From the NCBI GenBank assembly GCA_964650515.1, contig CAZYUB010000007.1, positions 20,837-84,836 on the forward strand: a DNA stretch of 64,000 nucleotides, read 5' to 3'. The translations under genes and the position numbers were made by a program. This DNA is from an uncultured Planctomycetia bacterium (GTDB taxonomy: Bacteria > Omnitrophota > Gorgyraeia > Pluralincolimonadales > Pluralincolimonadaceae). The notes beneath the pieces were generated by a model. It saw nothing but the letters and a program-made list of their open reading frames with translations, did not search any database and was not told the DNA's origin. Numbering within the stretch: position 1 is the first letter of the stretch; each line of letters opens with the position of its first letter. This document shows positions 36,116 to 56,874 of this stretch, in pieces.

Positions 36116-36135
36116 TCTAGAAAACGGAGGTCTGC

Positions 36136-36717: not shown

Positions 36718-39226
36718 CCCGCTCGTTTATTTTCTCGCTTTTGTGTTAGCCGCATCTCCCGTCGCATGCAGCGCTGCCCCCGCGGGTAGTGTCAATGCCG
36801 CGACCGAAAAGAAGATAGACGATCTTATCGGCAAGATGACGATACAGGAGAAGGTAAAGCTTATCGCCGGCAACGAGATGGAGACCTACGCTATAAGCAG
36901 GGTAGGGATACCGCAGCTGAAGATGTGCGACGGCCCGCTCGGCGTCCGCCATGGGCAGGCGACCGCGTTCCCGTCATCCGTATCGCTCGCCGCGTCATGG
37001 AACCCCGAGACGGCCTACGAGGTATCCTCGGCGCTGGCCGACGAGGCGAAAGCCAAGGGCAGGAACATGTCGCTCGCTCCGTGCATAAACATACACAGGG
37101 TGCCGATGGGCGGAAGGAATTTCGAGAGTTTCGGGGAAGACCCTTACCTTACCTCGCGGATGGCGGTCGCGTACATAAAAGGCGTGCAGGACAAGGGAGT
37201 CGTCGCGACGGTCAAGCATTACGCGTGCAATAACCAGGAATGGGAGCGCGGCACGATAGACACGATAGTCGACGAGAGGGCGCTGCGCGAGATATACCTG
37301 CCCGGGTTCGAGGCCGCTATCAAAGAAGGCGGTTCGTGGTCGATAATGGCCGCCTATAACAAGGTGAACGGCTGGCACTGCACCGAGAACGATTACCTCA
37401 TCAACCAGATACTGAAGAAAGAGTGGGGTTTCAAGGGCTTCCTCGTCTCGGACTGGAACGCCACGCACAGCACGGTAAACTGCGCGAATAACGGCATGGA
37501 CCTCGAGATGCCGAAAGGGGATTTCTTTAACGATAAGCTCGTTGATGCAGTGAAGAAGGGCGAGGTCAAGGAATCCGTCATAGACGATAAAGTGCACAGG
37601 CTCCTGAGGGTCATGTACTGGCTCGGGCTCTTCGATACCGGCCGGCCGGAAGATAAAGGGTCCATAGACACGCCCCAGCACAGGCAGATAGTCCGCGAAG
37701 CCGGGCGCGAAGGCATAGTGCTGCTGAAGAACGAAGGCGGGATACTCCCAATCGACATCACCAAGGTCAAGTCGATCGCCGTGATAGGGCCGAATGCGGC
37801 CGTCTGCAGGTTCGGCGGCGGCGGAAGCTCGGAGATGAGCCCGTTCTATTCGGTGAGCCCCATCGACGGGCTTAAGAAGAAGACCGAAGGTAAGGTCACG
37901 ATAAATTACGCGCTGGGATGCAAGTTCGACGGCGAGATGTCGCCGATCGACCCGAAATACGTCTACACGATGTATGACGGGAAGAAACAGAACGGTTTCC
38001 TCGGGGAATATTACAATAACAGGGACCTGAACGGGACCCCCGTGGTCAGGAGGATCGACAAGCAGATAAACTTCACCTGGGGCGGGAACGCGCCGGACGG
38101 CAAGCTACCCGCGGATAATTTCTCCGTAAGGTGGACGGCGAAGATCGTCCCGCCGAAGACCGCCAGATACGACATAAGTTTGATGAGCGACGACGGCTCG
38201 CGGCTATTCCTCGACGGGAAAGAGATCATCAGCAACTGGCGCGACCACGGCGAAGAGACGAAGACCGCATCGGTCATGTTCGAGGCGGGTAAGGAATACG
38301 ACCTGAGGGTGGAATTTTACGAGAACGGCGGGATGGCTTCCGCAAGGATAGGGTGGGATACGCAGGAAGAGCTGATGAACGAGGCCGTGGAAGCCGCGAA
38401 GAAGTCCGATATAACGATAATATTCGCGGGGCTGTCGAAGCATTACGAGGGCGAAGGATGGGACAGGCCTTCGATGCAGCTTCCTGCGGGCCAGGATGAG
38501 ATGATAAGCAAGATAGCCGATGCCAACAAGAATACGATAGTGGTACTGAACTCGGGCGCCGCGGTCCTTGTCAGCGTCTGGATAGACAAGGTCCCCGCGC
38601 TGGTCGAGGCGTGGTATCCCGGCCAGGAGGGCGGCAATTCCATCGCGGACGTGCTTACCGGCGATTATAACCCGTCCGGCAAGCTGCCTACGTCGTTCCC
38701 GAAACGCTGGGAGGACTGTTCCGCGTACCCGACGTATCCCGGGAAGAACGGCAAGACGTTCTACTCGGACGGAATATTCGTCGGATACAGGCATTTCGAG
38801 AAGGAAGGCAAAGAGGTCGAGTTCCCGTTCGGCCACGGCCTTTCGTATACGACGTTTGAATATTCGAATTTGAAGGTGACGCCGGAGAGGATATCCGACG
38901 GGAATATCAGCGCGGAGGTCAGCTTTGACCTGAAGAACACCGGCCCGCGCGCGGGAGCGGAAGTGGCGCAGATGTATATTAAGGACGTGGACGCGAGTGT
39001 CGAGAGGCCCGTCAAGGAGCTGAAGGGTTTCAGGAGGGTATTCCTCGAGCCCGGCGAGACCGTGCGCGTCACGTTCAAGATAGACAAGAGGTCGCTCGCT
39101 TTTTATGACGTGAAGGGCAAGGACTGGCTCGCCGAACCGGGCGAATTCGAAGTTATGATAGGCAGCTCGTCGCGCGACATAAAGCTCAAGAAATCCCTTA
39201 CGCTCCAGAAGGGCAAGCTCATCTGA
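36704..39226 (+). CDS. bglX: GH3 beta-glucosidase with PA14 insertion
   Basis: GH3 N-terminal domain (CDGPLGVR, KHYACNNQEWER, nucleophile region LVSDWNA) and PA14 domain (GEYYNNRDLNGTPV). Confidence 0.9.
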   Translation: MKKNSPLVYFLAFVLAASPVACSAAPAGSVNAATEKKIDDLIGKMTIQEKVKLIAGNEMETYAISRVGIPQLKMCDGPLGVRHGQATAFPSSVSLAASWNPETAYEVSSALADEAKAKGRNMSLAPCINIHRVPMGGRNFESFGEDPYLTSRMAVAYIKGVQDKGVVATVKHYACNNQEWERGTIDTIVDERALREIYLPGFEAAIKEGGSWSIMAAYNKVNGWHCTENDYLINQILKKEWGFKGFLVSDWNATHSTVNCANNGMDLEMPKGDFFNDKLVDAVKKGEVKESVIDDKVHRLLRVMYWLGLFDTGRPEDKGSIDTPQHRQIVREAGREGIVLLKNEGGILPIDITKVKSIAVIGPNAAVCRFGGGGSSEMSPFYSVSPIDGLKKKTEGKVTINYALGCKFDGEMSPIDPKYVYTMYDGKKQNGFLGEYYNNRDLNGTPVVRRIDKQINFTWGGNAPDGKLPADNFSVRWTAKIVPPKTARYDISLMSDDGSRLFLDGKEIISNWRDHGEETKTASVMFEAGKEYDLRVEFYENGGMASARIGWDTQEELMNEAVEAAKKSDITIIFAGLSKHYEGEGWDRPSMQLPAGQDEMISKIADANKNTIVVLNSGAAVLVSVWIDKVPALVEAWYPGQEGGNSIADVLTGDYNPSGKLPTSFPKRWEDCSAYPTYPGKNGKTFYSDGIFVGYRHFEKEGKEVEFPFGHGLSYTTFEYSNLKVTPERISDGNISAEVSFDLKNTGPRAGAEVAQMYIKDVDASVERPVKELKGFRRVFLEPGETVRVTFKIDKRSLAFYDVKGKDWLAEPGEFEVMIGSSSRDIKLKKSLTLQKGKLI

Positions 39227-40975: not shown

Positions 40976-41554
40976 ATGGGAAAATCACTGAAGGGCACGC
41001 AGACGGAGAAGAATTTGTTGGCCGCATTCGCGGGAGAATCACAGGCGCGGAACAGGTATACATATTTCGCGAGCGCCGCCAAGAAGGAAGGGTTCGAGCA
41101 GATATCCGCGTTATTCCTCGAGACCGCCGAGAACGAGAAAGAGCACGCTAAGGTATTCTTCAAGTACCTCGAGGGAGGCGATGTCGAGATAACGGCGTCA
41201 TACCCGGCCGGCATTATCAGGGACACGAAAGCGAACCTTGAGCACGCCGCTGCCGGCGAGAACCTTGAATGGACGACGCTCTACGCCGATTTCGGCAAGA
41301 CGGCCGCCAATGAAGGGTTCCCCGAGGTCGCGCGCTCCTTTGAGCAGATAGCCAAAGTCGAGAAATTCCATGAGGCGAGATACAGGAAGCTCGCCGGCAA
41401 TATAGCCAACGGCGAGGTCTTCAAGAAGAAGGCGCCGGTCAAATGGCACTGCAGGAATTGCGGTTACGTATTCGAAGGGCCCGAAGCCCCGAAGGAATGC
41501 CCGGCCTGCAAGCACCCGCAGCCGTATTACGAAGTCCTGGCCGAAAACCTCTAA
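40976..41554 (+). CDS. rbr: Rubrerythrin
   Basis: Diiron EXXH motifs and C-terminal rubredoxin-like CRNCGY..CPACKHP. Confidence 0.92.
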
Positions 41555-41560
41555 AAATTC

Positions 41561-41668
41561 AGGAGCCATAAAAATTCAGGAGCCATCCTCCGGGGGGACA
41601 CCCATCTCAATGCAGCATGTCCCCCCGGAGGATGGCTCCTAGCTTTTTTTGGCTCCTAGCTTTTTTGA
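41561..41668. repeat. REP doublet (REPIN): inverted pair of the unit AAAAA-N3-AGGAGCCATCCTCCGGGGGGACAC with flanking partial direct duplications, between convergent genes
   Basis: Arms 41579-41601 and 41618-41639 are 22/22 complementary. aaaattcaggagccat x2 on the left and ggctcctagctttttt x2 on the right. Confidence 0.75.
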
Positions 41669-42652
41669 GAGGGAGCCGGCTGCGCAGGGGTCGAACATGA
41701 GCTCGTCATTGCGGAGTATCTCGGGGATGCCGCCTTTATTGCTCGCGAGGCAAGGGATCCCGAGCGCGAGCGCCTCGAGGAGGGCGAGCGGGCAATCGTC
41801 ATGTAGGGAAGGCAGGACGAAGAGGCCTGCCGACTTAACGATATCAAGCCGGTCTTCCCTCGCGCCGGCGAATATTACGCTGCCGCTTATCCCGAGCGAT
41901 ACCGCGAGTTCCTTGAGGCGGGCCATCTCACTGCCGTCTCCCACCAGTATGAGGTACCCTCCGGGAACGGAAGCCGCGCAAAACTCCCTCAATAAGAAAT
42001 CCACATTCTTCCTCGGTATCAAAGAACCGCAATACGTGATGACAAAGCTTCCTTTCGGGATTCCGAATTCCTTCCAAAGGTCGATTATCTTTGCGTTGTC
42101 GATATCATCCTGAGCCGGGCGGTTCGGGGATATGCCGATATCCTTTTTAAATCCGTAGTATTTGCGCGCCCTTTGCGCGAGGTCTTTTGATACGGCGAGT
42201 ACGCTCACCGCGCAGCGTATGCCGACAAAACCGTATAACCTTAGGGCCAGCGCGACAGGAGGAGAGAGGCGCCTGCTCCTGATAAGATGTTCCATGCTTC
42301 CTTCCATCAAAAGGGTGGTCTTCGCTCCGCAGAGGATGGCAGCGGGAGCGCAGAGCGCGGCGAATTCCTCGTTGTATACGACGAAGTGTTTTATCCCGTG
42401 TCTCACCGCTATGAAAAATATAAATAAAGGGCTCAGCGCGTAAAATACAGCGTAGAATAAAAGCTCGTTCCCGCAATAGAAGGGGAATTTGTGGAAGGTG
42501 ATCCCGCGGCGCTCTTCGCCGAAGAATGGCTTTGACGAAAGATAATGCGCCTCGACGCCTTTATCGGCAGCCGCTTTTACGGCAAGGGAGAGCTGGCGGA
42601 AGCATCCGCCCTGTTTCGGGTAAGGGTATAGTGTGAATATCGCTGGTTTCAT
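41639..42652 (-). CDS. Glycosyltransferase family 1/4
   Basis: GT-B C-terminal motifs (E-x7-E-like region, GIPCLASNKGGIPEIL). The last 6 codons are read through the REP flank. Confidence 0.7.
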   Translation of the reverse strand: MKPAIFTLYPYPKQGGCFRQLSLAVKAAADKGVEAHYLSSKPFFGEERRGITFHKFPFYCGNELLFYAVFYALSPLFIFFIAVRHGIKHFVVYNEEFAALCAPAAILCGAKTTLLMEGSMEHLIRSRRLSPPVALALRLYGFVGIRCAVSVLAVSKDLAQRARKYYGFKKDIGISPNRPAQDDIDNAKIIDLWKEFGIPKGSFVITYCGSLIPRKNVDFLLREFCAASVPGGYLILVGDGSEMARLKELAVSLGISGSVIFAGAREDRLDIVKSAGLFVLPSLHDDCPLALLEALALGIPCLASNKGGIPEILRNDELMFDPCAAGSLSKKLGAKKS

Positions 42653-43869
42653 CCGTTCCTTTTTGCGATCCGGTGCGCGAAATGCCTCAATTTTACCCTC
42701 GGCAACACCCTGAAAGCCGTTTTCATCGCGACGCCGGTGATCTCGTTATCCGGGAGGTAGTTTAAACTCCACCCTCCGGGCATATCGTACATATCCCCGT
42801 GCGCCCACGGCCCGGCGGCGGCTTCCGAACATTTATCCACGAGCCCCGTAAACGCGGAGACATTCCTGTTGATATCGAACCGGCTTTCTGCGGCCCTGCG
42901 CGCGGCGTCCCCGATGCCCGAGGCGCGCGCCTTATCCATCTTCGCGATATTCTCGAGTATCCGCGCCACTGCCCCGGTATCCCCGGTTTCCGCGGTAAAT
43001 CCGTTAACGCCGTCCTCGATGACACGCCATCCGCCGCCGGAGGACCGCGTTACGCAGGGGATAAGCCGCGCGGCCATTGCCTCGAGCATGCTTACCGACT
43101 GCCCCTCATATTTTGACACTTGCAGGAATACATCGTATCCGCTTAACCTTCCGAGGAGTTCCGCGCGCGGGATCTGCCCGAAGAAATTCACCTTTCCGCA
43201 TGATAGGCGCATCTTACGGGCGGCGCAAGCAAGCGCCCGTTTATCGGGGCCCGAACCTATGATATCGAGGGTGAACGAAGTCCCGCGCTTATCGAGCAGC
43301 TCAGCGGCCTTCAGCAGGCCGGAGGCATCTTTTTGTTTTTCGTCTATCCTGCCGAAATATACTATCTTCAACGGCCTGAGGGAATATACTTTATCTTCCC
43401 GCGCGGGAATCGTTATGCCGTAGGTTATGAGTTCGATATCATCTTTCCTGTGCGGGATATATCCTGCCAACGCCTGCGCGCAGCCGCCGCTAACAGCCAT
43501 GAATCCCGATATCGCGGACTCATACCAGGCGAGCGGTTTGTAATATTCATCCGAGCTGTCGGCATGGCACGCGCCTATGCACCTTAAACGAGCTCCTTCT
43601 TCGTTAAGCTTCGCGCAGATCCCGAATACCTTATGCCGCCAGTTCGGCATCACGACGGCGGGGGAGAGGCGCCTGAGCGTTTTTCCGAGCTGGTCCCATG
43701 AATGGATATAAATGTCCACCTTCTCGTCGCCCGCAAATGTGTAGCCGTCGCTTATCGTGATGAGGTTGTAACGGCTTCCGTCTAACCGGTGCCTGAGTTC
43801 CCTGATCCAGGCGTCGACACCGCCGATAAGGGTGTTGCCTGTCCAGATTATAAGGTTTATCTTTTCCAT
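42649..43869 (-). CDS. GT4-type glycosyltransferase (paralog 1)
   Basis: Shares N-terminal IIWTGNTLIGGVD..ITISDGYTFAGDEKVDIY with the adjacent gene; GT-B C-terminus. Confidence 0.7.
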   Translation of the reverse strand: MEKINLIIWTGNTLIGGVDAWIRELRHRLDGSRYNLITISDGYTFAGDEKVDIYIHSWDQLGKTLRRLSPAVVMPNWRHKVFGICAKLNEEGARLRCIGACHADSSDEYYKPLAWYESAISGFMAVSGGCAQALAGYIPHRKDDIELITYGITIPAREDKVYSLRPLKIVYFGRIDEKQKDASGLLKAAELLDKRGTSFTLDIIGSGPDKRALACAARKMRLSCGKVNFFGQIPRAELLGRLSGYDVFLQVSKYEGQSVSMLEAMAARLIPCVTRSSGGGWRVIEDGVNGFTAETGDTGAVARILENIAKMDKARASGIGDAARRAAESRFDINRNVSAFTGLVDKCSEAAAGPWAHGDMYDMPGGWSLNYLPDNEITGVAMKTAFRVLPRVKLRHFAHRIAKRNG

Positions 43870-45002
43870 GATCTTTTAAGTATGCTGAGGACCCCGCCTT
43901 TATTGAAATAGTCGGAGCTCCATCCTCCGGGCATTATATAGGTGCTGCGGGGCCATTCCCGCGCCGGGCTTTCCATGCAGGCGTCGAGCGCTTCCATGAA
44001 TTCGGCGCCCGTTTTCCTGATATCGCAGTTGTCCGCGGCGGTCTTGTACGCGCGGCCGCCCATTACGGAGGCCTCGTCCGGGCCCATGCGCGAGATGCGC
44101 TCAAGCGCCGAGGAGATGCTTTCTATATCGCCTATTCCGGCAGTAAACCCGTTAACGCCGCCGTCGATCAGGTACGACGCGCCGCCGCTTGCCCTCGTTA
44201 CGCAGGGTATGACCTTCCTTGCCATGGCCTCCATCATGCTGAGGCCGAAGCCCTCGTACTTCGAGACCTGCAGGAAGACGTCGTATTCGGGAAGCTTCGC
44301 GAGCATTTCGGAATGCGGCACCTGCTCAGAATACCTTATTTTTCCGGACTCCGGCAGCGCCTTTTTGAGCGCATCTTTGTCGGGCCCGGAACCGATGAGG
44401 TCCAGCGTATAATCGACGCCTTTACCGTCGAGTATCCGCGCGAGAGCTGCGAAACCGAGGACGCCCTTTTGTTTCTGCTCCATCCGCCCGAAATACGCGA
44501 GTTTTAACGGGCGCAGCGAATATCCTTTCGCGGGCGCTGCCGGTATTGTTATGCCGTAAGGGATGCGTGTTATGTCGGATACGCGCTCCGGCGGGATGCG
44601 CGCGGCGAGTTTATCCCTGCAATAAGGGCTTCCCGCGACGAACTTCGAGATGCCCGGCTCGTACCAGGCGAGGGGGGCGTAATATTCTTCGTCGCTGTCG
44701 GAATGCGGCATGCCGAGGCACCTTAAATGAGCGCCGTCCTTATTCAGTTTCGCGCAGATGCCGGTTATCGGGTGGGCCCAGTTCGGCATCACGACGGCGG
44801 GTGAAAAACGCTGAAGCGTTTTCCTAAGTTGTTTCCAGGAACTGACGTATATATCTACTTTCTCATCGCCCGCGAATGTGTAGCCGTCGCTTATCGTGAT
44901 GAGGTCATAGCGGCTGCCCTTAAAGAACGTTTTCAGTTCTTTAACCCAGGTATCCACGCCGCCTATGAGCGTATTGCCGGTCCAGATTATAAGGTTGGCC
45001 AT
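43857..45002 (-). CDS. GT4-type glycosyltransferase (paralog 2)
   Basis: Tandem duplicate of the previous gene. Confidence 0.7.
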   Translation of the reverse strand: MANLIIWTGNTLIGGVDTWVKELKTFFKGSRYDLITISDGYTFAGDEKVDIYVSSWKQLRKTLQRFSPAVVMPNWAHPITGICAKLNKDGAHLRCLGMPHSDSDEEYYAPLAWYEPGISKFVAGSPYCRDKLAARIPPERVSDITRIPYGITIPAAPAKGYSLRPLKLAYFGRMEQKQKGVLGFAALARILDGKGVDYTLDLIGSGPDKDALKKALPESGKIRYSEQVPHSEMLAKLPEYDVFLQVSKYEGFGLSMMEAMARKVIPCVTRASGGASYLIDGGVNGFTAGIGDIESISSALERISRMGPDEASVMGGRAYKTAADNCDIRKTGAEFMEALDACMESPAREWPRSTYIMPGGWSSDYFNKGGVLSILKRSWKR

Positions 45003-45005
45003 TTT

Positions 45006-46358
45006 TTAGAAGAAATAACTTTTCGCGGCATCGCCCGCGCAGGACTTGCCGCACTTTATGCCGTCTTCGGCGATGTTATTGAGCCACGCCATCCTGCACT
45101 TGTCTTCCGAACAGAATTCCCTGAGCTTGTTGAAGAAGAGGAAGGGGAGAAGGTTTATCTTTATAAGCTCTTCCGTCGAGGGGTCCTTGAAGTTCCCGAG
45201 GAGGTACTCGGGGTCGGAAACCCTGACAAAGCAAGGGTATACCTCGCCGGTCGGGCGGAATATCTTGAAGGACATGCAGTAGTAACATTTGTCAAAAGGT
45301 TTACCCGCGCGGAAATCGTTGCCTTCGGAGACCTTCTCCCAGTTGGTGTTGTTCAGGATGAATTTCGAGAGGCCGGTGTCGCCGCAAAGGTATTTTTCGA
45401 AGATCCTTACGGAATTTTCCACCTGTTCCTTTGTGCATATCATCTCCCGCGAAACATGGTTCTTGCGGACCTTTTCCGGGACATCCACGCCGGGCCGCAT
45501 AGGTCGGAATTGTATGTTTATCTTGCCTATTAACGAGGGGCATTTATCGGAAGCGATATCATATACCAGTTTCACAAGTTCATGTGTCTCGTGGATATTC
45601 CTGCTCCAAACGAGATATCCCAGCCCAACGTGGGGGATAGGGCCCCGAAGGTAATCAAAATAATTATCAAGCACCCTATGGAAAACGTCCCTCTTCTTTG
45701 ACATAAAGAACGTCTCCGGAGTCGCGGAATCTATAGATAACCTTATCCAGTCGATGTGGCGCTGCCAGTCGCCTTTGGGTATGTGCGTCCCTTTCGTGAC
45801 GACGCCTATTTGTATTCCCTCGTCGTATTCTTTTATCTTCGAGACGATATCGGCGAAGCCCTTGCCTTTATATTTATAGAGCGTAGGTTCGCCTCCGCCG
45901 ACGAGGACGACCGACTTCGGCCTGTATGTATTGAGTATCCTCCGGAAATATTCGAACGGCATGACGTCATTTCCGCGGTCCTTGTAGTAGCATCCCACGC
46001 ATTCGTGGTCGCAGAAATCGGTCGGGTGGAATTCGATATGCCCCGCTCCGACAAGCATTCCCAGGTAAGCGTCGAATCTCGCGCGGGAGAGCCTGACTTT
46101 GCTGGACTTATTGAGGGCGTAGATGCCGTCGACCGCCTGCGCGAAGCCGGACTTCCCGGATTGCAGTTCCGCGAGGATCGAATTAACTTTCCTGACGGCC
46201 TCGGAGGGATAGAACCTGCTTTCGACGGCTCCGATAAGGCGGCCTATCGCGATCTTCCTGCCTATCAGCGCGCTATGGTTGAGTATCCTGGAGTGGTTGC
46301 GGGCGACCAGGCTCAGGTAATTCAGGACGGGTTTTACCGATACGGTTGCGTTTATCAT
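45006..46358 (-). CDS. Radical SAM enzyme with C-terminal Cys-rich SPASM/twitch-like domain, embedded in a glycan locus
   Basis: CDHECVGC = Cx3Cx2C; VLVGGGEPTLY; the C-terminus holds about 8 Cys. Confidence 0.75.
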   Translation of the reverse strand: MINATVSVKPVLNYLSLVARNHSRILNHSALIGRKIAIGRLIGAVESRFYPSEAVRKVNSILAELQSGKSGFAQAVDGIYALNKSSKVRLSRARFDAYLGMLVGAGHIEFHPTDFCDHECVGCYYKDRGNDVMPFEYFRRILNTYRPKSVVLVGGGEPTLYKYKGKGFADIVSKIKEYDEGIQIGVVTKGTHIPKGDWQRHIDWIRLSIDSATPETFFMSKKRDVFHRVLDNYFDYLRGPIPHVGLGYLVWSRNIHETHELVKLVYDIASDKCPSLIGKINIQFRPMRPGVDVPEKVRKNHVSREMICTKEQVENSVRIFEKYLCGDTGLSKFILNNTNWEKVSEGNDFRAGKPFDKCYYCMSFKIFRPTGEVYPCFVRVSDPEYLLGNFKDPSTEELIKINLLPFLFFNKLREFCSEDKCRMAWLNNIAEDGIKCGKSCAGDAAKSYFF

Positions 46359-48457
46359 CTTATCCGTATCCTGTTATAGTATCTGTTCAGCGGGCTGTCA
46401 ATGTATTTCGTATTGTTCCAGACCATGTCCGCGTGGACGAGCGAATACGCCCCGGCTTCGATCCCCGACACGAACCTCGACGGGTCCCAGATCCCGAGCA
46501 TCCATAACCGGTCCATTATGTACGGTTCGAAGACCGGGCCCTTGCCGGCGATTATGGCTACGGAGGCGTCTTCGGCCATTACGTATTTATCGGTGCCTTC
46601 GGCGGCCCGCATTGCTTTATCTTTCGTCGTTTTTTCCGCCGCGAAATAATCTCCCGGGAACGCCGGGATATCCTTCCAGAAGAACGGGTTAGACCCGGGC
46701 ACCGGCAGGTTCATTAACGCGAAGATGCACAGGAGCGCGCCCACGGCCGCTTTCCTGCCTTTTGTGAGGCCGGCAACGGAAATGAGCGAACCGGACAGCA
46801 GAAGCAGCCATATATACGCCTCGATGAAATAATTCGTGTCGGAGCCGACCCTGGAACCCGCGACGAGGATATAGGCCATCGAGGCCGCGAGGCCGGCCGA
46901 CAGGAAGGCGGCCCTTATCCTTTCCGCCGGCGGCATGCCGCGTAAGCGAAAACATATCATTACGGCTATTAATAAGGGCCATGTTTCCGAAATGAAACGC
47001 TTCAGTAGCGCGATCCCGAGGCCCGGATCCAACTCGGTAAATTTCAGCATAATCCCGAAGGCCTGGGACGCGAATTGCCCCGCGGTCGCGGCCTGCCATA
47101 CGGAGAACATCGCCGCGGTCAATGCCGCGAACAAAAGGGCCGCCTTCAGCGCGGGCCGCCCGGTGTAAGCCCAATACGCGAACAGTACCGCGGCCGGTAC
47201 GGCTATCATCGATTTCGTGAAGAACGCCAGGCAAAGCAGGGCGGAGGACGCGGCCATTTTAGGCGCGCCGGCCCCGTTTTCGAGCCCTATATAAAGGGCG
47301 AGGCAGATGAAGAACGTCTCAAGCATATCCACGCGGTAGAGGTTCCCCCAGTAGGCGACCGCGTTTATAGAAAGGAATAAGAGGAAGAATACCGCCGCCC
47401 AGGGCCGCCCGCCGCACCGTTTCGAGGCATTCATCCCCAACAATACGGCGATGCCGCATGCCGAGAGCAGGCTTATGATGCGGCCGGCTTCCAGGCCGAG
47501 GCCGGATAACTTATGCACCCATCCCGCGGCGATATAGAAGACCGGCGCGTACGCCGTCGGCCAGTACGGCCATTGGTTATGATCGGGATAGTACCCGAGC
47601 GACTGCGACCAGAAGTTGGACGCCCACATCGCGCCCTCGACGATATTTATCGAATACGGGTAGCGCGAGGCCGCCAGGGAATAGTAAATGAAATACGCGA
47701 GGTTCAGCAGGAGCAGAAGGATGAGCGCCGTATGCCCGGGAGGAAGGGCCCTTCCCGCGATGCCGATAAGCCCCGCGAGGTTCCTGATATCCGACCTAAT
47801 TAGCGACGCCTTCGAGCCGGGAGTATACGACCATTCGATCGGGACTTCCTTAATATCCATTCCCGCGCGCCGCGCCTCATACAGGATCTCCGCGTCTATA
47901 AGGGAGCCGCTTGACCCGCACAACGGCATTATTTCCCTGAGCCGCGCTGTCCTGAAAACCTTGAGGCCGCAGAACGGGTCCGTTACGGGAAGGCCGGTGA
48001 AAGATCTCACTGCGCCCGCCGCGAGCGCGCTGTTTATCCTTCTCGATAAAGGGGCGGGGGATGTTATCTTCGAGCCCGGCATCCTCCTCGAGCCGGCGAC
48101 GATATCATGGCCTTGCGCGAGCTTCAGGAGCTTCTCCGTTTCCTCCGGGCAGACTGAGCCGTCGATATCCGCGAAAGCCATAAGCGGGGCCGTTACGCTC
48201 TTCAGGGCTTCGGCGAGCGCGCGGCCTTTGCCCTTCTGCGGTATTTCTATGTACCTGATGTTCGCTGAATCCCGCGCAATGCCCTCCAGGACGTCCGCGG
48301 TCCCGTCGGTGCTGCCGTTTACGACGACGAGTATCGAATATTCCCCGCGCCCGTAGCGTTCCGCGAAATACCTGTCGTATCTCTCGACCGTGCGGTATTC
48401 CGGGAGACGTTTCGCCTCGTTGTAAGCCGGGAAGACGATCTCGAATTTAGGCGCCAT
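46355..48457 (-). CDS. Fusion of a GT2 polyprenyl-phosphate sugar synthase-like domain with a 12-TM GT-C-like membrane domain
   Basis: N-terminal GT-A motifs (NEA, DGT, ADIDGS), then about 450 aa polytopic. Confidence 0.65.
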   Translation of the reverse strand: MAPKFEIVFPAYNEAKRLPEYRTVERYDRYFAERYGRGEYSILVVVNGSTDGTADVLEGIARDSANIRYIEIPQKGKGRALAEALKSVTAPLMAFADIDGSVCPEETEKLLKLAQGHDIVAGSRRMPGSKITSPAPLSRRINSALAAGAVRSFTGLPVTDPFCGLKVFRTARLREIMPLCGSSGSLIDAEILYEARRAGMDIKEVPIEWSYTPGSKASLIRSDIRNLAGLIGIAGRALPPGHTALILLLLLNLAYFIYYSLAASRYPYSINIVEGAMWASNFWSQSLGYYPDHNQWPYWPTAYAPVFYIAAGWVHKLSGLGLEAGRIISLLSACGIAVLLGMNASKRCGGRPWAAVFFLLFLSINAVAYWGNLYRVDMLETFFICLALYIGLENGAGAPKMAASSALLCLAFFTKSMIAVPAAVLFAYWAYTGRPALKAALLFAALTAAMFSVWQAATAGQFASQAFGIMLKFTELDPGLGIALLKRFISETWPLLIAVMICFRLRGMPPAERIRAAFLSAGLAASMAYILVAGSRVGSDTNYFIEAYIWLLLLSGSLISVAGLTKGRKAAVGALLCIFALMNLPVPGSNPFFWKDIPAFPGDYFAAEKTTKDKAMRAAEGTDKYVMAEDASVAIIAGKGPVFEPYIMDRLWMLGIWDPSRFVSGIEAGAYSLVHADMVWNNTKYIDSPLNRYYNRIRIR

Positions 48458-49097
48458 CGCTCGTTATCCTTCCGCCCTCCATCACGATAGTGCGGCCGCA
48501 TATCTTTTTTATGCTCCCGGTGTCGTTTGACACGAAGAATATCGTCTTGCCGGCCCTTTTCAGTTCGGAGAGTTTCTTGAAACACTGTTCCTGGAAACCG
48601 GTATCGCCGACAGCGAGGACCTCGTCTATAAGCAAAATACCGCCGTCAATATGGACAGCGACGGAGAAGGATACCCTGGATATCATGCCATGGGAGAGCT
48701 TGAGCACCTGCGCGTCGACCATCTCGCGTACGCCGGCGAAATCCACGATATCATCGAAGATCTTCTTCGCGTTCTTCCTCTTAATGCCGAATACGGCGGA
48801 AAGAAGGTATATGTTCTCCTTGACGCTCAGGTTGAAATTCAACGCGCCCTCGACCCTTATGAGCGGCACGACCCTGCCGTTTACCGCGGCCTTTCCGGAC
48901 GTCGGTTCCGTGATTCCGGCGATGAGCCGCATAAGCGTCGTCTTGCCGGAGCCGTTGGGCCCGGTGACGCCCACCGATTCGCCGCGGTCCACGGAAAAGG
49001 AGACGTCTTTCAGCGCCCAGAGGTAGTCATTCCTGCTGAAGTAATATTCGCCCTTATGGAACCTCTTGCTGACATTCCTGAATTCTACGGTTTTCAT
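48447..49097 (-). CDS. ABC transporter ATP-binding protein (Wzt/TagH-like polysaccharide export)
   Basis: Walker A GPNGSGKTT, signature LSHGM, Walker B LIDE. Confidence 0.85.
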   Translation of the reverse strand: MKTVEFRNVSKRFHKGEYYFSRNDYLWALKDVSFSVDRGESVGVTGPNGSGKTTLMRLIAGITEPTSGKAAVNGRVVPLIRVEGALNFNLSVKENIYLLSAVFGIKRKNAKKIFDDIVDFAGVREMVDAQVLKLSHGMISRVSFSVAVHIDGGILLIDEVLAVGDTGFQEQCFKKLSELKRAGKTIFFVSNDTGSIKKICGRTIVMEGGRITSDGA

Positions 49098-49933
49098 GGC
49101 GCTAGTATGTCCGCTATGTTCTTTTCGCTTGCTTTGAATATATAGTACCCGGCAACGAAGACCGTTATTGATATCACCGAAGCTATCGTGATGGAAAGCA
49201 GGTCCGGCGCGCAGTTATGCAACAGCGCCTTCCTGTAGCCGTCGAGGATCCCGGCCATCGGGTTAAGGAAATAATACGGCAGCAGCGCCTTGTCGACCAT
49301 GCCGACCGGGTATCCGACGGGCGAGGCGAGCATCCAGACCTGGAGCAGTATGGGCATCGCGCTTTGTATGTCGCGGAAATAGACGTTCAACACCGAGACG
49401 ATAAGGCACACGCCTATCGTGAACATCAAATGCACCGCAAATACCGGGACCACGTACAGGGCGTTTATCCCCACCGGATAGCCGTAAAGCGCGAATACCG
49501 CCGCAAGCAGCGCGGAAGATACCATGAAGTCCGCGAGCGTCGCGAGCACGGAGCCGAGCGGCACGGTTATCTTGGGGAAGTTGATCCTCGTTATCAGGTT
49601 GAAATTGGAGTTGAGGCAGTTGACCGCGAAACCCACCGAGGACGAGAAGAATATCCACGGGACTATCGCGGTGAAAGCGAAGACCGGATACGGCGCGCCT
49701 TCCGACTGCACGCCAGCGACCTTCGAGAATACGACGGTGAACACCGCCATCGTCATCAGCGGGTTGATTACGGCCCACGCGGCCCTGAGGTACCTTTGCT
49801 TGTACCTTTGCTTGAGGTTGACGAGGCCGAAGGCGATTATGAGCTCGTGCCAGTTCCTGATGCTTGATAAGAGAGAAAATGGGTTAGGCATTTTGATGTA
49901 ATTCATTATATTACAAATATATGCGGGGTTCAA
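49094..49933 (-). CDS. ABC-2 type transporter permease (Wzm/TagG-like)
   Basis: 6 TM segments; ABC-2 family pattern. Confidence 0.8.
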   Translation of the reverse strand: MNPAYICNIMNYIKMPNPFSLLSSIRNWHELIIAFGLVNLKQRYKQRYLRAAWAVINPLMTMAVFTVVFSKVAGVQSEGAPYPVFAFTAIVPWIFFSSSVGFAVNCLNSNFNLITRINFPKITVPLGSVLATLADFMVSSALLAAVFALYGYPVGINALYVVPVFAVHLMFTIGVCLIVSVLNVYFRDIQSAMPILLQVWMLASPVGYPVGMVDKALLPYYFLNPMAGILDGYRKALLHNCAPDLLSITIASVISITVFVAGYYIFKASEKNIADILAP

Positions 49934-49965
49934 TAGGGCTTGAAACGGCCGGCCTCAGGCAGGAG

Positions 49966-50748
49966 TCAGAACTTATAGCAGCTCTTTAACTGGAAGTACT
50001 GCCCCTTAGGCGCGTTCTCGGTATGGGTGTCGTAGAGGTACGTGAAAGAGAAGCTCATCCCCCTTATCCGCGTGTAGATATCCCCCCCGACGGAAAACGT
50101 CCTGCGCCCGCTGTTCTTTATCTTGACGCCGTCGCGCCTCTGCTCGCTGCTCATCATCCAGTTTACGGAAGGGCCCATCTTGAGGTTTTTTGCGACGTTA
50201 TACCCGAGGAGATACTGGAGATGGAGCTCATCGCCCGGCGCGATATCCTTGTCGTTCTCGAGCCGGAAATAGTATTTTGCCGCGGCGTCCATGCTGAAAT
50301 CATTTATCGTCTTACTGAAGAATACGACGGGCCTTATGTCGACCTGGTGCGTGCCGTAATTCGTGCTCTTGTCCGAGGCGTATTCGCCGGTAGGCATCTT
50401 TACAAACAGCATAGGCAGGACATCGACTTCCTTGATTGGCAGGAAGTAGCCCGCGCCGGCTGTAGCGTCGCCGAGGCCCCATGAACTCTTGTCCGTAGGA
50501 CGGACCCGTACGCCGCCCGCGGGAAGCAGGGCCGTCACGACGAAGTCCGGGGAATAATAACAGAATCGCAGCAGCTCCTCCGCTTTCAGGAGCTTGTCGG
50601 CCGCATAGACGGAGGAGTAGGTCAGGAAATAGAGGCCTTTCGGCGCACGGGCACCGTCATAGAAGTTTACGGCATGGGAGATATCTGGTATTATAATCAT
50701 CAGGGCGGCGGCGATTGCCGAAGCATAAGACAGGGCTTTAATGCGCAT
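49966..50748 (-). CDS. Outer membrane beta-barrel protein (MetA-pathway/transporter-like OMP family candidate)
   Basis: True start at ATG 50748 (MRIKALSYASAIAAALMII) with an AGGAGG ribosome-binding site. The track ORF is over-extended to 51189, across hemW. C-terminal aromatic residue F. Confidence 0.6.
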   Translation of the reverse strand: MRIKALSYASAIAAALMIIIPDISHAVNFYDGARAPKGLYFLTYSSVYAADKLLKAEELLRFCYYSPDFVVTALLPAGGVRVRPTDKSSWGLGDATAGAGYFLPIKEVDVLPMLFVKMPTGEYASDKSTNYGTHQVDIRPVVFFSKTINDFSMDAAAKYYFRLENDKDIAPGDELHLQYLLGYNVAKNLKMGPSVNWMMSSEQRRDGVKIKNSGRRTFSVGGDIYTRIRGMSFSFTYLYDTHTENAPKGQYFQLKSCYKF

Positions 50749-50802: not shown

Positions 50803-51930
50803 ATGCAAAAGATATCGCTGTATATACACATCCCATTCTGCGCGAGGAAGTGCGCTTATTGCGATTTCTACAGCGTCGTGTATGATAAGTCCACCGCGGA
50901 TGCCTATATAGATGTCCTCTGCGCGCAAATAGGGAAGATAGACAGGCCGGTCTCGACGGTATTCATCGGCGGGGGGACGCCGACGGTGCTTGAGGTGCCG
51001 ATGATTAGGAAACTGCTGCGCTGCCTCGGGAAGCTTCCCGTGAGGGGCGCGGAGTTCACCGTTGAGGCGAACCCGGAGAGTTTGACCGCGGACAAGATAA
51101 ACCTGTTCCTCGACGAAGGCGTCAACCGGATCAGCATCGGCGTGCAGTCGTTCCGGGACGGCAAGCTCAGGAAGCTTGGCCGCATACATGATTCGAAGAA
51201 GGCAAGGAACGCTGTCCTCTCGGCGGCGAAGAAGGGATTCAGGAACATAAATGCGGACCTGATCTTTGGGGCCCCCGGCGAGGCATTCGAGGAATGCGCC
51301 GCGGAATTCGACGAGGCGGCGGGCCTGCCGTTAACGCACATATCGTGCTATTGCCTGTCGTATGAGAAGGGCACGCCGTTATACGAGGCGAAAAAGAAGG
51401 GCGATGTGGCACCGGTCGAAGATGAATACGCGGCGCAGATGTATTCCTACGCGATGGATTTTCTGCCTAAGAAAGGTTTCAGGCATTACGAGGTCTCGAA
51501 TTTCGCCAAGAAGGGGTATGCCTGCAGGCACAACATCAACTACTGGGAGAACAACGAATATATCGGCCTCGGAGCGTCGGCGGTCACCTATACCGGCGGC
51601 GACAGGATGAGGTACATCCCGGACGTAAAGGAGTATATGGAGAAGGCCTCTTCGGGCGGACGTGCGTTCGTTTCATCGGAGCACCTTATCGGCGAGCGCA
51701 AGGCGAGGGAGACCGCTGCAGTCAAGATCAGGACCGCGGAAGGGATAGATTTCCGCCGGTTCAGGGAGAAGACCGGTTGCGACCTTATGAAACTGGAATC
51801 CGCCGCCATACGCAAGCTCTGCGACGCGGGCCTTGTAAAATTCAGGATGTCCAAATGCAGGAAGGCGGGCATTGCGCTGACGAAGAAAGGGTTTCTTTTC
51901 TGCGACACGGTATCAAGCGAACTGTTGTAG
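50803..51930 (+). CDS. hemW: Radical SAM heme chaperone HemW (HemN-like oxygen-independent coproporphyrinogen oxidase family)
   Basis: LYIHIPFCARKCAYCDF motif. Confidence 0.9.
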   Translation: MQKISLYIHIPFCARKCAYCDFYSVVYDKSTADAYIDVLCAQIGKIDRPVSTVFIGGGTPTVLEVPMIRKLLRCLGKLPVRGAEFTVEANPESLTADKINLFLDEGVNRISIGVQSFRDGKLRKLGRIHDSKKARNAVLSAAKKGFRNINADLIFGAPGEAFEECAAEFDEAAGLPLTHISCYCLSYEKGTPLYEAKKKGDVAPVEDEYAAQMYSYAMDFLPKKGFRHYEVSNFAKKGYACRHNINYWENNEYIGLGASAVTYTGGDRMRYIPDVKEYMEKASSGGRAFVSSEHLIGERKARETAAVKIRTAEGIDFRRFREKTGCDLMKLESAAIRKLCDAGLVKFRMSKCRKAGIALTKKGFLFCDTVSSELL

Positions 51931-52576: not shown

Positions 52577-52640
52577 CAAGCAAGGAGCCATCCTCCAGGG
52601 GGCTGCGAAGCGTCCCTCGCGCAAAATAATTTGAAAGAAA

Positions 52641-52688: not shown

Positions 52689-53273
52689 ATGCCAAGAAAA
52701 CCCAGACATTTGGTTGATAACGGTTTTTATCATATCATGAGCAGGGGCCACAACAAGTGTGAGCTGTTTTATTCGCGAAAGGATTACGAGAAGTATAAGA
52801 ACTTAATCGTTGAATATAAACAAAAGTTTCCTTGCGATATCTACCACTATTGTTTTATGCCGAATCACGTCCATATTGTATTAAAAATAATACGCGGAGA
52901 TGATCTACCGGAACTCATGCAGCGGATTAATCAGGGTTATGCTCGGTATAACAAGAGACTGCGCGGAACAGTCGGAAATCTATTTCAGGGGAGATATAAG
53001 GGCCTTATCATCGAAACGGAGGGGTATTTACTGGAGTGCGGCAGATATATAGAAAGAAATCCATTAAAATCAGGATTAGAGAGCAACCTGCTGCGGTATC
53101 CTTTTTCCAGCTTCAGTTTCTATGTGAAAGGGGATAGAGATGAAATATTGACTCCAAACCCGCTGTATTTAGAGTTGTCCCGCTCCGAAGAGGAGAGGAG
53201 GAGGATTTATGCAGAGTATGTACTCAAGGAAAGGATGGAAGAGCATGTTAAGAGCATTAACTCAGGATCATAG
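52689..53273 (+). CDS. tnpA: IS200-like / REP-associated tyrosine transposase (HUH Y1)
   Basis: HUH motif PNHVHIV with upstream YHIMSRGH and catalytic Tyr region (RYIERNPLK). Confidence 0.85.
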   Translation: MPRKPRHLVDNGFYHIMSRGHNKCELFYSRKDYEKYKNLIVEYKQKFPCDIYHYCFMPNHVHIVLKIIRGDDLPELMQRINQGYARYNKRLRGTVGNLFQGRYKGLIIETEGYLLECGRYIERNPLKSGLESNLLRYPFSSFSFYVKGDRDEILTPNPLYLELSRSEEERRRIYAEYVLKERMEEHVKSINSGS

Positions 53274-53443
53274 CGCACCATTTAGGGGCAAGAGCTGAGG
53301 GTGTCCCCCCGGAGGATGGCTCCTTCGTATTTTTTTGTTGACAAGTTATTGTGATTATGATAACTATAATACAAAATATATAAATCATAAGAATGGCAGT
53401 TATGGTAATTACAATAACTCTGTGAGGGAAGAAGCTCTATAAT

Positions 53444-53713
53444 ATGGGCCTAAAGCAGAAGCTTATATCCGCGCAGGAGATCATCAAGAAGTACGGCATA
53501 ACCTACCAGACCGTCAACCACTACACGAATTTCGGGCTTATCAACGTAATCACCAAGAAATCGAACGTCCGGCTTTACGACGAGGAAGAGGTGGACCGCC
53601 GCCTCACGAAGATAATCCAGCTCGCCGGAGCGGGATTCCCGCTGCGCCTTATCAGGAAGACGCTCAACGACGAGCTCGCGGTGAAGGTCAACACAGGGAC
53701 GGGTGGCGCATGA
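53444..53713 (+). CDS. MerR-type HTH domain-only protein
   Basis: ISAQEIIKKYGITYQTVNHYTNFGLI; ATGA overlap with the downstream ATPase gene. Confidence 0.55.
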   Translation: MGLKQKLISAQEIIKKYGITYQTVNHYTNFGLINVITKKSNVRLYDEEEVDRRLTKIIQLAGAGFPLRLIRKTLNDELAVKVNTGTGGA

Positions 53714-54579
53714 GCTACTTCAAGATACTCGGATTGGAGAAAGAGCCGTTCTCGACAAGCCCCGACCCTGAGTTCTTCTACCAGTCGCCGGAGCATAAGT
53801 CGGCGCTTTACCGGCTGCGCATAGCCATAGAGCTCAGGAGAGGGCTGAGCTTAGTTCTCGGAGATGTCGGGACCGGCAAGACGACGTTGAGCAGGAAACT
53901 CTCGCAGCTTTTGGCCGAAGACCCGGGCCTCGTGATGGCGATGGTCCTTAATCCCGTATATGAATCTGAAAAACAATTTTTAGCGGACCTTTCGGAGCGC
54001 TTCCATATTGTGGTGGATTCGGGGAATGGGAGCGCTCCAACGTTATTGGACTACATGAAGTCGTTCGAGAAGTTCCTGTTCGAGAAGGGAGTGCAGGAGG
54101 ACAAGACGATAGTCCTGCTCATCGATGAATCCCAGAAGCTCAGCGACCCGTGCATGGAGATCCTGCGCGCGCTGCTGAACTACGAGACGAACGAGTACAA
54201 GATCCTGCAACTCGTGCTTATGGGCCAGATGGAGCTCCTGCCGCGGATAAGCAGGATAAACAACCTCTGGGACAGGATTGCGGTCAAGTATTTCATAAAC
54301 CCGCTCGAGGAAGACGAGGTCCGGGAGCTTATAAATTTCCGCCTGCATAAGGCGGGGTATGTCTCGAGAGAGCCGCTCTTCGATGATGCGGCCGTAAGGG
54401 CGGTCTTTAACCATACGCAGGGATATCCGCGCAAGATCGCGATGCTCTGCCACGACGCGCTCGAATATACCGTGATGTACAACAAGCACTGCGTCGACAG
54501 GCAGGTCATACATGACCTTATCCAACGCGAGATGAAAGCGGCGCAGGCATTCCGCTATGTCTCGCAGGCGGCGGGCTGA
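53710..54579 (+). CDS. ExeA/GspA-like AAA ATPase (AAA_22; resembles PEP-CTERM-locus secretion ATPase subfamily)
   Basis: Walker A GDVGTGKTT, Walker B LLIDESQ. About 290 aa, no peptidoglycan-binding tail. Confidence 0.6.
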   Translation: MSYFKILGLEKEPFSTSPDPEFFYQSPEHKSALYRLRIAIELRRGLSLVLGDVGTGKTTLSRKLSQLLAEDPGLVMAMVLNPVYESEKQFLADLSERFHIVVDSGNGSAPTLLDYMKSFEKFLFEKGVQEDKTIVLLIDESQKLSDPCMEILRALLNYETNEYKILQLVLMGQMELLPRISRINNLWDRIAVKYFINPLEEDEVRELINFRLHKAGYVSREPLFDDAAVRAVFNHTQGYPRKIAMLCHDALEYTVMYNKHCVDRQVIHDLIQREMKAAQAFRYVSQAAG

Positions 54580-55255
54580 TATGGCTGACACCGTATCTCC
54601 CGAAGAGAAGCTCTTTAATATGATCAAGGAAGGGAAGGATTCCGGCTCCGGCGGTGGAGTTTCAAAACCGAAGAATTCCTCGGCAGCACTCGGGGGGATA
54701 AAGAAATTCTTCGGATCTTTGAAACTTCACCCCGGCGCTAATAAGCAGGATGCCGCCTCCGCATCCGCGGCGCCCCGGATAGAGATAGACCCGGGGTCGG
54801 TGAACAGGGTGCTGTCGGTAGTCCTGCTGGCGGTCGCGAGCTTCTTCGTATATTACCTTTTCAGCACGCGGCCGGACGCGGAGAAGATAATAAAATCCGT
54901 CCCGAAAACGGATACGTCCCTGAAGGCCGAGGTCGAGAGGTTCGCGCCGCTCGAATCGTACCTCGCGGAGACGCGGAGGAGGAATATCTTCAAGCCGGCG
55001 CCGAAAGACGAGGCAAAAGGAGCGCCGACATCAAGAGAGGCGATGGAAAAACTGAAAGAAGCCGCCCGTGACCTGAAGGTTGTGGGGATCTCCTGGGGAG
55101 AGACCCCGAAGGCGCTGATCCGAAGCGAAAGGGACAAGACGACATATTTCCTGAAGCAGGGCCAGCAGGTCGGCACGACGGACGTGGATATAAGGTCTAT
55201 AACAAAGCAGAAGGTCACTATAGGATACAAGACGGAAGAATTTGAACTGCCTTAA
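54557..55255 (+). CDS. Single-pass membrane protein with C-terminal PilP/GspC homology-region-like beta domain
   Basis: TM segment VLSVVLLAVASFFVYYLF; C-terminal YFLKQGQQVGTTDVDIRSITKQKVTIGYKTEEFEL. Confidence 0.4.
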   Translation: MSRRRRADMADTVSPEEKLFNMIKEGKDSGSGGGVSKPKNSSAALGGIKKFFGSLKLHPGANKQDAASASAAPRIEIDPGSVNRVLSVVLLAVASFFVYYLFSTRPDAEKIIKSVPKTDTSLKAEVERFAPLESYLAETRRRNIFKPAPKDEAKGAPTSREAMEKLKEAARDLKVVGISWGETPKALIRSERDKTTYFLKQGQQVGTTDVDIRSITKQKVTIGYKTEEFELP

Positions 55256-56873: not shown

Positions 56874-56874
56874 G

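Follow-up and report, generated by a model that had tools for sequence, protein, structure and literature searches.

What does a radical S-adenosylmethionine (SAM) enzyme do in an apparent glycan operon, and with which of its neighbors does it work? The question is raised by a locus in a 64,000-nucleotide stretch of DNA (hereafter, the window; positions 20,837 to 84,836 of contig CAZYUB010000007.1, GenBank assembly GCA_964650515.1) from an uncultured bacterium of the phylum Omnitrophota. Here, genes for an outer membrane protein (OMP), the permease and ATPase of an ABC-2 transporter, a GT2 glycosyltransferase (GT) fused to a GT-C-like membrane domain, a radical SAM enzyme and three further GTs follow one another on the minus strand. 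The initial annotation, made without database searches, had placed the radical SAM enzyme in a Wzm/Wzt-type export pathway. We find that it goes instead with the GT2/GT-C pair. To judge from the sequences compared here, the unusual feature of the locus is a conserved GT2/GT-C/radical SAM module with a rare twitch-type enzyme, which appears to be a variant of the known scheme in which a polyprenyl-phosphate sugar synthase serves a GT-C transferase.

The radical SAM enzyme belongs, as far as homology searches can tell, to a tiny uncharacterized family. A word-index search returned 28 relatives among 5.8 billion proteins, and an exhaustive search of 1.84 billion yielded 83 cluster representatives at E ≤ 1e-30, with a single full-length representative above 50% identity. 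We retrieved 171 loci of relatives and scored their neighbors, considering those with at least 45% identity as close relatives. The trio of GT2, GT-C and radical SAM genes is kept in 7 of the 8 informative lineages at this level and spans at least 2 named phyla, Omnitrophota and Margulisbacteria. Two types of loci can be distinguished. In Omnitrophota relatives at 85% and 67% identity, the order is that of the window, from the OMP gene through the permease, ATPase, GT2::GT-C and radical SAM genes to 3 GT4 genes, except that the OMP gene is followed by an opposite-strand gene for a B12-binding radical SAM enzyme; the closest homologs of both the radical SAM enzyme and the fusion (82% to 88% identity) are annotated as Candidatus Omnitrophota. 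In the second type, a GT2 gene (246 to 249 aa, no transmembrane [TM] helix), a GT-C gene (492 to 512 aa) and the radical SAM gene are followed by a gene for an AsnB-like amidotransferase. Loci of this type come from 2 metagenome-assembled genomes (MAGs), one of Margulisbacteria and one labelled Myxococcales, and from a 1-Mb contig of an unclassified bacterium as well as 2 further contigs; one of these loci is rearranged, with GT2 downstream of AsnB. No ABC transporter and no GT4 genes were found in the loci of the second type, and the GT2, GT-C and radical SAM genes are the only ones common to both types. Because relatives from other phyla keep the trio without an ABC transporter or GT4 enzymes, the radical SAM enzyme is tied to the GT2/GT-C pair, and its assignment to the Wzm/Wzt pathway is not supported. 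No description of the trio was found in the literature on radical SAM enzymes with polyprenyl/GT-C systems, undecaprenyl epimerases, O-antigen ABC loci or Omnitrophota.

Three further products are encoded in loci of the second type (L003:11339-17165, L005:11429-17368, L171 and L169): a pilin-like protein, which carries a prepilin methylation motif; a multi-TM protein of approximately 700 aa, with approximately 10 TM segments and C-terminal TPR repeats; and a second paralog of GT-C. In locus L003, the genes adjoin PilM/N and secretin genes. The gene set of this type may represent a pseudopilin or envelope glycosylation system.

The 2 halves of the fusion protein correspond to separate genes of the relatives: its GT2 domain is homologous to the stand-alone GT2 proteins (211 bits), and the split GT-C protein matches its C-terminal half (254 bits). 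Being split in relatives and fused in the window, GT2 and GT-C are expected to work together. All proteins of the window were scanned against Pfam and NCBIfam, with E ≤ 0.01 taken as the limit for a hit. The GT2 domain combines its family match with a DxD motif, D97-I-D99. In NCBIfam, it scores 49 bits with the Dol-P-hexose transferase model (cut-off 375) and 35 bits with ArnC (cut-off 529), AglJ and PpgS likewise remaining under their cut-offs, so that no named enzyme is matched there at the equivalog level. The closest sequences in the PDB are ArnC (E 4e-8) and then the Dol-P-Man synthase DPMS. Dol-P-hexose transferase, AglJ, ArnC, PpgS and DPMS each load one sugar onto polyprenyl phosphate. 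From these nearest relatives and the fusion to a GT-C domain, we infer that polyprenyl phosphate is also the acceptor of the GT2 domain.

Residues 236-700 of the fusion have no Pfam match, including to PMT, PMT_2 or DUF2029 (the initial annotation had suggested profiles of DUF2029/PMT), and no sequence hit in the PDB. In the AlphaFold2 (AF2) model of the fusion (mean predicted local distance difference test [pLDDT] 61), the TM half reaches a pLDDT of 70 to 89 and the GT2 half stays below 50, so that the TM half alone was interpreted. Its top Foldseek hits are ArnT (5ezm/5f15), PimE, AftB, Pmt4, AglB, ALG3/9 and DPY19; 11 of the 12 top hits are GT-C enzymes, with ArnT leading (E 4e-5, TM-score 0.48 to 0.52 on the target). 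A profile of 11 orthologs and paralogs of this half (alignment A3) reaches a protein annotated as 'ArnT family glycosyltransferase' (E 4e-50) as well as PF13231 (PMT_2) proteins (E 1e-22 and 4e-19), an indirect link that runs from the family profile to PF13231-bearing and 'ArnT family' proteins. Within A3, E274 in the first periplasmic loop after TM1 is invariant in all 11 sequences down to 20% identity, as are R375-V-D377, T414-K415, N542 and W657, and D658 is nearly so. GT-C enzymes carry their catalytic acid in the first extracytoplasmic loop, and E274 is the candidate for this role. Given that the GT2 domain is cytoplasmic, the E274 loop must face the periplasm. The 12 TM segments originally proposed are an approximation: the AF2 model has approximately 12 to 13 membrane helices, but hydropathy reveals 8 to 9 strongly hydrophobic segments. 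Taken together, the ArnC and DPMS matches in the PDB, the GT-C hits in Foldseek and the profile link to PMT_2 support the proposal that the fusion points to periplasmic glycosylation.

The radical SAM enzyme itself scores 42 bits with PF04055 (cut-off 29.5), which places it in the superfamily, and both its C116-x3-C120-x2-C123 motif and its GGGEP SAM-binding motif are invariant in 21 sequences (alignment A1). Toward the C-terminus, C358-x12-G371-x4-C376 and C416-x4-C421 are conserved, and all 4 cysteines are invariant in A1. A SPASM domain is defined by 7 cysteines in the pattern C-x9-15-G-x4-C ... C-x2-C-x5-C-x3-C ... C, 2 auxiliary clusters and a profile hit. The enzyme has no CxxCx5Cx3C block and matches neither PF13186 nor TIGR04085 at E ≤ 0.01; PF13186 is carried by a few relatives at approximately 30% identity. 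Thus, of the earlier label "radical SAM/SPASM", the radical SAM assignment and the Cys-rich C-terminus stand, but the full SPASM domain does not. The C-terminal cysteine pattern suggests a SPASM-related but reduced, twitch-like domain, which would hold a single auxiliary cluster because only 4 C-terminal cysteines are invariant and only the first SPASM half-motif is present. A B12-binding domain, which it had been proposed to look for, is absent from the enzyme by the Pfam scan (PF02310), and it does not qualify as a class B enzyme. The AF2 model (pLDDT 92) begins with an extension of approximately 100 residues, which is all-helical and conserved, with an invariant N27-H28...K35 motif; R20-N21, ahead of it, are part of the conserved stretch. 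We rejected this extension as a recognition element for peptides that are made by the ribosome and modified after translation (RiPPs), as the confident model is predicted to be all-helical there.

The top Foldseek hit of the radical SAM enzyme is the TDP-sugar enzyme DesII (E 1e-11). Viperin, MoaA and the peptide maturases SkfB, SuiB, CteB and anSME are also among its structural neighbors, the identity to all of these being 12% to 19%. The family profile matches MoaA with 31 bits over residues 99-224 only. No curated NCBIfam family claims the enzyme, and a search of solved structures with the family profile returned no informative relative. With no curated family match and with synteny kept in relatives, the enzyme is neither a housekeeping protein nor non-syntenic, the combination that the initial annotation had named as speaking against it.

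Relatives at approximately 30% identity are much more numerous, and a PNP_UDP_1 nucleosidase gene adjoins the radical SAM gene in 47 of 78 loci, mostly directly upstream (L087, L124 and L109 are among the loci scored). Some of these relatives carry a fused PPDK_N/PEP-utilizer dikinase or DSPc phosphatase domain, and some form part of proteins with 4000 to 6400 aa (P0070, P0078, P0079, P0083, P0090, P0092 and P0094). One distant relative (L086:4489-9680) has a 1150-aa STAND/NACHT-like NTPase on one side and a Trypco2-domain protein on the other, a context typical of conflict systems. The pairing of a radical SAM enzyme with a nucleosidase recalls HpnH/HpnG and MqnE/MqnB, and in these distant relatives it is an uncharacterized system that is possibly nucleotide-related. 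We rejected the transfer of a function from them to the window enzyme, since their conserved neighbor is the nucleosidase rather than GT2/GT-C and since some are dikinase or phosphatase fusions.

All 8 open reading frames (ORFs) of the initial annotation are present on the minus strand where it had placed them, and their domain matches in Pfam and NCBIfam are far above chance (Table 1). From the permease to the last GT, all junctions in the ORF listing are overlaps of 4 to 13 nucleotides (nt) or a 3-nt gap: the ATPase and permease genes overlap by 4 nt, the radical SAM gene overlaps its upstream neighbor by 4 nt and is separated from the downstream one by 3 nt, and the gene of GT4 paralog 2 overlaps its neighbors by 13 and 4 nt. 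Since they overlap or nearly abut, the 7 genes from 49933 to 41639 look like one translationally coupled operon. The 2 tandem GT4 genes are indeed paralogs, matching each other at 443 bits. By contrast, the label "GT1" given to the terminal gene is wrong; its product matches the same GT4-type models, PF00534 and PF13692, as the other 2 and is not a member of CAZy GT1.

Table 1. Features of the glycan locus and its downstream repeat (positions in the window).
Feature	Position	Strand	Basis
OMP, 260 aa	49966-50748	-	PF13557, E 3e-19
ABC-2 permease, 279-aa ORF, Wzm/KpsM/TagG-like	49094-49933	-	PF01061 (ABC2_membrane), E 1.5e-16
ABC ATPase, 216 aa	48447-49097	-	PF00005 (ABC_tran), E 7e-19
GT2::GT-C fusion, 700 aa	46355-48457	-	Glycos_transf_2 at residues 7-169, then multi-TM domain
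GT2 domain of the fusion, residues 1-235	47753-48457	-	PF00535, E 3e-17
GT-C-fold membrane domain of the fusion, residues 236-700	46355-47752	-	Foldseek and profile search
Radical SAM enzyme, 450 aa	45006-46358	-	Radical_SAM PF04055
GT4-type (GT-B) transferase, paralog 1, 381 aa	43857-45002	-	PF13692, PF00534, E 1e-16
GT4-type (GT-B) transferase, paralog 2, 406 aa	42649-43869	-	PF00534, E 8e-21
Third GT4-type transferase, 337 aa	41639-42652	-	PF00534 (Glycos_transf_1), E 9e-25; also PF13692
Palindromic REP doublet (REPIN-like hairpin)	41549-41669	no strand	between convergent GT4 and rubrerythrin genes

The matches to PF01061 and PF00005 support an ABC-2 glycan operon of the Wzm/Wzt, TagGH or KpsMT kind, as originally proposed. 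The permease has 6 hydrophobic segments and scores 45 bits with the KpsM model and 37 bits with galactan Wzm in NCBIfam, both under the cut-offs; its translation probably begins at the ATG at 49906 or 49891, and the gene call in relatives is 270 aa. The ATPase scores best with TagH (169 and 149 bits, cut-off 538) and with galactan Wzt/RfbE (128 bits, cut-off 400). It consists of the nucleotide-binding domain only, without the C-terminal glycan-binding domain of Wzt. The locus thus has the permease and nucleotide-binding protein of a Wzm/Wzt exporter, but neither its cap-binding domain nor a score above the curated cut-off, and the generic label "ABC-2 glycan exporter" is, on the domain matches, the limit of what can be said of the pair.

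The OMP is a small beta-barrel of the Phenol_MetA_deg family, which begins MRIKAL and has a hydrophobic, signal-like N-terminus. Synteny of its gene is kept in both Omnitrophota relatives (85% and 67% identity). A promoter-like site at 50809-50780 is its own, and a second one lies just before the permease (49933-49905), both being consensus matches only. The OMP gene had been counted as part of the operon; the gene is there, but in both relatives the opposite-strand B12-binding radical SAM gene intervenes between it and the ABC genes, and for this reason we describe it as a neighbor whose operon membership is doubtful. The intervening gene encodes 482 to 493 aa (L001:4913-6361 and L090:968-2449), and no trace of it is present in the window, where 49934-49965 is the corresponding interval. 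It may represent a second tailoring enzyme that was lost in the lineage of the window.

Considering gene content and the conservation of the trio, we propose, with about even confidence, that the operon builds and decorates an envelope glycan and that the radical SAM enzyme tailors the sugar delivered to the periplasm by the GT2/GT-C pair. The GT4 enzymes, as cytoplasmic GT-B transferases, would assemble a lipid-linked glycan, which the ABC-2 transporter would export. On the cytoplasmic face, the GT2 domain would load one monosaccharide onto polyprenyl phosphate, and after flipping, the GT-C domain would hand this sugar to an acceptor in the envelope, be it the exported glycan or a different one. 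The cytoplasmic radical SAM enzyme would abstract a C-H hydrogen from the sugar used by this branch, at one of two stages: as a nucleotide sugar, ahead of the GT2 step, or as a polyprenyl-phosphate sugar, once that step is complete; the candidate reactions are epimerization, dehydrogenation or deoxygenation, and decarboxylation of a uronic acid. Its part would parallel that of ArnA/ArnD, DprE1/E2 or ORF13 of Citrobacter youngae O2, with anaerobic radical chemistry. One concrete possibility is a uronic-acid substrate, a speculation prompted by the AsnB-like neighbor in loci of the second type and the resemblance to BlsE. A bolder variant, which we advance only tentatively, is that the substrate is the lipid-linked sugar, the twitch-type enzyme epimerizing, oxidizing or decarboxylating a polyprenyl-phosphate sugar in an undescribed pathway of anaerobic, mostly uncultured bacteria.

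Several systems combine elements of this scheme. In the GtrB/GtrA/GtrC systems of Salmonella and Shigella and in ORF15/14/12 of C. youngae O1/O2, a synthase and a GT-C enzyme add a sugar outside the cytoplasm and are encoded within a glycan locus, as in the window, and the sugar delivered in C. youngae O2 is altered by the SDR epimerase ORF13, an accessory enzyme of the cytoplasm (PMC11127046). Unlike in these three-component systems, the synthase and GT-C of the window form one polypeptide with no GtrA- or MATE-type flippase nearby, and unlike in C. youngae, a radical SAM protein takes the place of the SDR epimerase as accessory enzyme and the synthase is of the GT2 rather than the phosphoribosyl type. 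The Arn pathway of lipid A modification consists of ArnC, ArnD, ArnE/F and ArnT, with ArnD tailoring the undecaprenyl-phosphate sugar between synthase and transferase. Among solved proteins, ArnC and ArnT are closest to the 2 fusion halves, and the ArnD step is the position proposed here for the radical SAM enzyme. However, the similarity is remote (36 bits to ArnC, 13% to 14% identity to ArnT in the fold alignment), and the window has 3 GT4 genes and an ABC-2 exporter but no homologs of ArnA, ArnB, ArnD or ArnE/F. The streptococcal group A carbohydrate is exported by the ABC transporter GacD/E and receives its side chain through GacI/J/K/L, with a dedicated flippase. Such rhamnose-polysaccharide loci share with the window a polymer built by cytoplasmic GTs, Wzm/Wzt-like export and external decoration through a GT2 synthase and a GT-C enzyme, but they are Gram-positive, have separate genes and a dedicated flippase, and lack a radical SAM enzyme. 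DprE1/E2 epimerize a lipid-linked sugar before it is used by GT-C enzymes, with flavin- and NAD-dependent chemistry, in contrast to the radical SAM enzyme of the window.

The initial annotation had likened the fusion to mycobacterial Ppm1. The membrane partner fused to the synthase in Mycobacterium tuberculosis Ppm1 is Lnt-like rather than GT-C, and the analogy is therefore loose; ArnC with ArnT or GtrB with GtrC provide a closer comparison. What stands is the joining of a polyprenyl-phosphate sugar synthase to a membrane domain (PMC3485146). As for the radical SAM enzyme, its identity to the cytosylglucuronate decarboxylase BlsE (PMC3715490) and to DesII, a TDP-4-amino-4,6-dideoxyglucose deaminase/dehydrogenase, is only 12% to 14%. 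It further differs from both in its 4 invariant C-terminal cysteines, which imply an auxiliary cluster, in the conserved 100-aa helical N-terminal extension, and in its envelope-glycan context, as opposed to an antibiotic pathway. With BtrN, MoaA and SkfB, twitch enzymes with one auxiliary cluster, the likeness in sequence is limited to the generic radical SAM core, and the substrates differ.

A number of observations weigh against the proposed role. No characterized homolog fixes the substrate of the radical SAM enzyme, and in structural comparison, the scores of the peptide-modifying enzymes SkfB, SuiB, anSME and CteB fall only slightly short of those of BlsE and DesII. One close homolog (P0009, 55% identity, locus L170) stands alone in a mobile-element region without GT2 or GT-C, and the relatives at approximately 30% identity have other partners, namely the nucleosidase, the dikinase and phosphatase fusions and the STAND NTPase. 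The fusion could be modeled with only moderate confidence, and the last GT4 gene is truncated in the window genome. The window contains neither a priming phosphoglycosyltransferase nor a nucleotide-sugar synthesis gene, and no GtrA-, MATE- or ArnE/F-type flippase is encoded near the operon, the sole MATE gene of the window being 25 kb away (17211-18635). The operon and its flanks thus lack the dedicated flippase that accompanies the GT2/GT-C pair in three-component systems; the ABC transporter may be a putative substitute. This last possibility is central to an alternative that differs from our proposal mainly in the acceptor, in which an Arn-like module decorates lipid A, the lipopolysaccharide core or another envelope lipid, with the ABC-2 transporter flipping the polyprenyl-phosphate sugar. 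The kinship of the fusion halves to ArnC and ArnT, the 'ArnT family' annotation of one relative, and the position of the ABC genes, which directly precede and overlap the fusion gene where no dedicated small flippase gene is found, all fit this alternative. Yet an operon with 3 GT4 genes speaks for an oligo- or polysaccharide as its product, the trio does without an ABC transporter in loci beyond Omnitrophota, and all similarities to Arn proteins are far below the family cut-offs, so that we consider it unlikely.

The near-equal scores of the peptide-modifying enzymes raise the question of whether the radical SAM enzyme is instead a maturase of the SPASM/twitch clan, comparable to SkfB, SuiB, CteB or anSME, which modifies a secreted or envelope protein, such as a pilin-like one, before its glycosylation by GT-C. 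The pilin-like gene of the second locus type has no counterpart in the Omnitrophota operon, which also lacks a small precursor gene, the intergenic gaps being too small to accommodate one, and the 2 locus types have only GT2, GT-C and the radical SAM gene in common. Moreover, the predicted all-helical N-terminal extension lacks the beta-strands of a winged-helix peptide-recognition element, and the best single structural hits of the enzyme are sugar-nucleoside enzymes. A maturase thus appears quite improbable. Even less probable is a viperin-like, nucleotide-modifying enzyme of conflict or defense that is only loosely tied to the glycan genes. The best NCBIfam and PADLOC hits are to prokaryotic viperin (36 bits with NF038283 and 41 bits with pVip, both over residues 108-216), and the nucleosidase pairing, the dikinase and phosphatase fusions and the STAND NTPase/Trypco2 context of the distant relatives would suit such an enzyme. 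These scores, however, fall far short of 180 bits, the NF038283 cut-off, and extend over the generic cluster-binding half alone. The close family, at 45% identity or more, has none of those partners; in 7 of its 8 lineages, the radical SAM gene instead overlaps those for GT2 and GT-C. The PADLOC match being weak and partial, we rejected a defense-system reading for the close family. The solitary homolog at L170 would be accommodated if the radical SAM gene were a passenger without a functional tie to the operon, but its tight junctions with both neighbors in the window and an adjacency kept across lineages of at least 2 named phyla despite differing surroundings make this the least probable explanation, and one that we would hardly expect to hold.

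The operon ends in a repetitive extragenic palindromic (REP) doublet, as the initial annotation had stated: the last 8 codons of the terminal GT gene (KKLGAKKS*) are encoded by the repeat. The arms of the hairpin are 52 nt long and 85% complementary, each with a 17-nt tandem duplication; it lies between convergent genes and is probably a bidirectional terminator. By chance, the 24-mer core of the repeat would be expected 0 times in the window; it is found 3 times, with the doublet copies at 41577-41641. Further copies (52587-52604, plus strand, diverged; 53302-53325, minus strand) flank in inverted orientation a gene for a Y1_Tnp transposase, which is IS200-like and of the RAYT type (52689-53273). 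The same repeat flanking a Y1 transposase and forming a hairpin doublet elsewhere is the REP/RAYT arrangement, which makes the name "REP doublet" apt. A weaker copy lies at 663-680. The same hairpin is found at the same site in relatives L089 and L001, where the GT gene reads through into it. Relative to L089:6040-6400 and L001:14600-14920, the DNA alignment at window positions 41639-41669 reveals a deletion of approximately 75 nt and a 17-nt duplication, which shift the frame and deprive the last GT of approximately 31 to 36 C-terminal residues (337 aa versus 373 and 368 aa in the relatives). The 17-nt duplications on both arms suggest a hairpin-templated rearrangement or an assembly artefact.

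The surroundings of the locus include a HemN-like radical SAM gene (50803-51930), which diverges from the OMP gene, and, 3 kb past the locus, a secretion cluster with an AAA_22 ATPase, a secretin and a TPR protein (53710-57927); secretin genes are also found near the trio in the Margulisbacteria locus L003. On the other side, a plus-strand cluster for the use of cellodextrin or beta-glucan (24420-39226) is notable for an Omnitrophota genome. Besides a GntR/LacI-type regulator and CBM30 proteins, its products include a GH94 phosphorylase, a GH9 cellulase, a GH3/PA14 beta-glucosidase and a protein of 960 aa in which one region is GH39-like.

O-antigen diversity, antibiotic resistance based on lipid A and the mycobacterial cell wall all rest on glycosylation outside the cytoplasm by way of polyprenyl-phosphate sugars and GT-C enzymes. 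To our knowledge, the accessory enzymes through which the donated sugar is varied depend on NAD or flavin. Our results correct the pathway assignment of the radical SAM enzyme, from the ABC-exported backbone to the GT2/GT-C branch; the candidate set is compact, with 3 genes, or 2 where GT2 and GT-C are fused. If the enzyme does act on the lipid-linked sugar, it would be an oxygen-independent counterpart of DprE1/E2, ArnA or ArnD and the first radical SAM enzyme known to act on a lipid-linked glycosyl donor for extracytoplasmic glycosylation. More generally, a radical SAM enzyme tied to the GT2/GT-C pair would mean a chemically new way for anaerobes to obtain unusual envelope sugars and would offer the first clue to function in a rare protein family without a characterized member.

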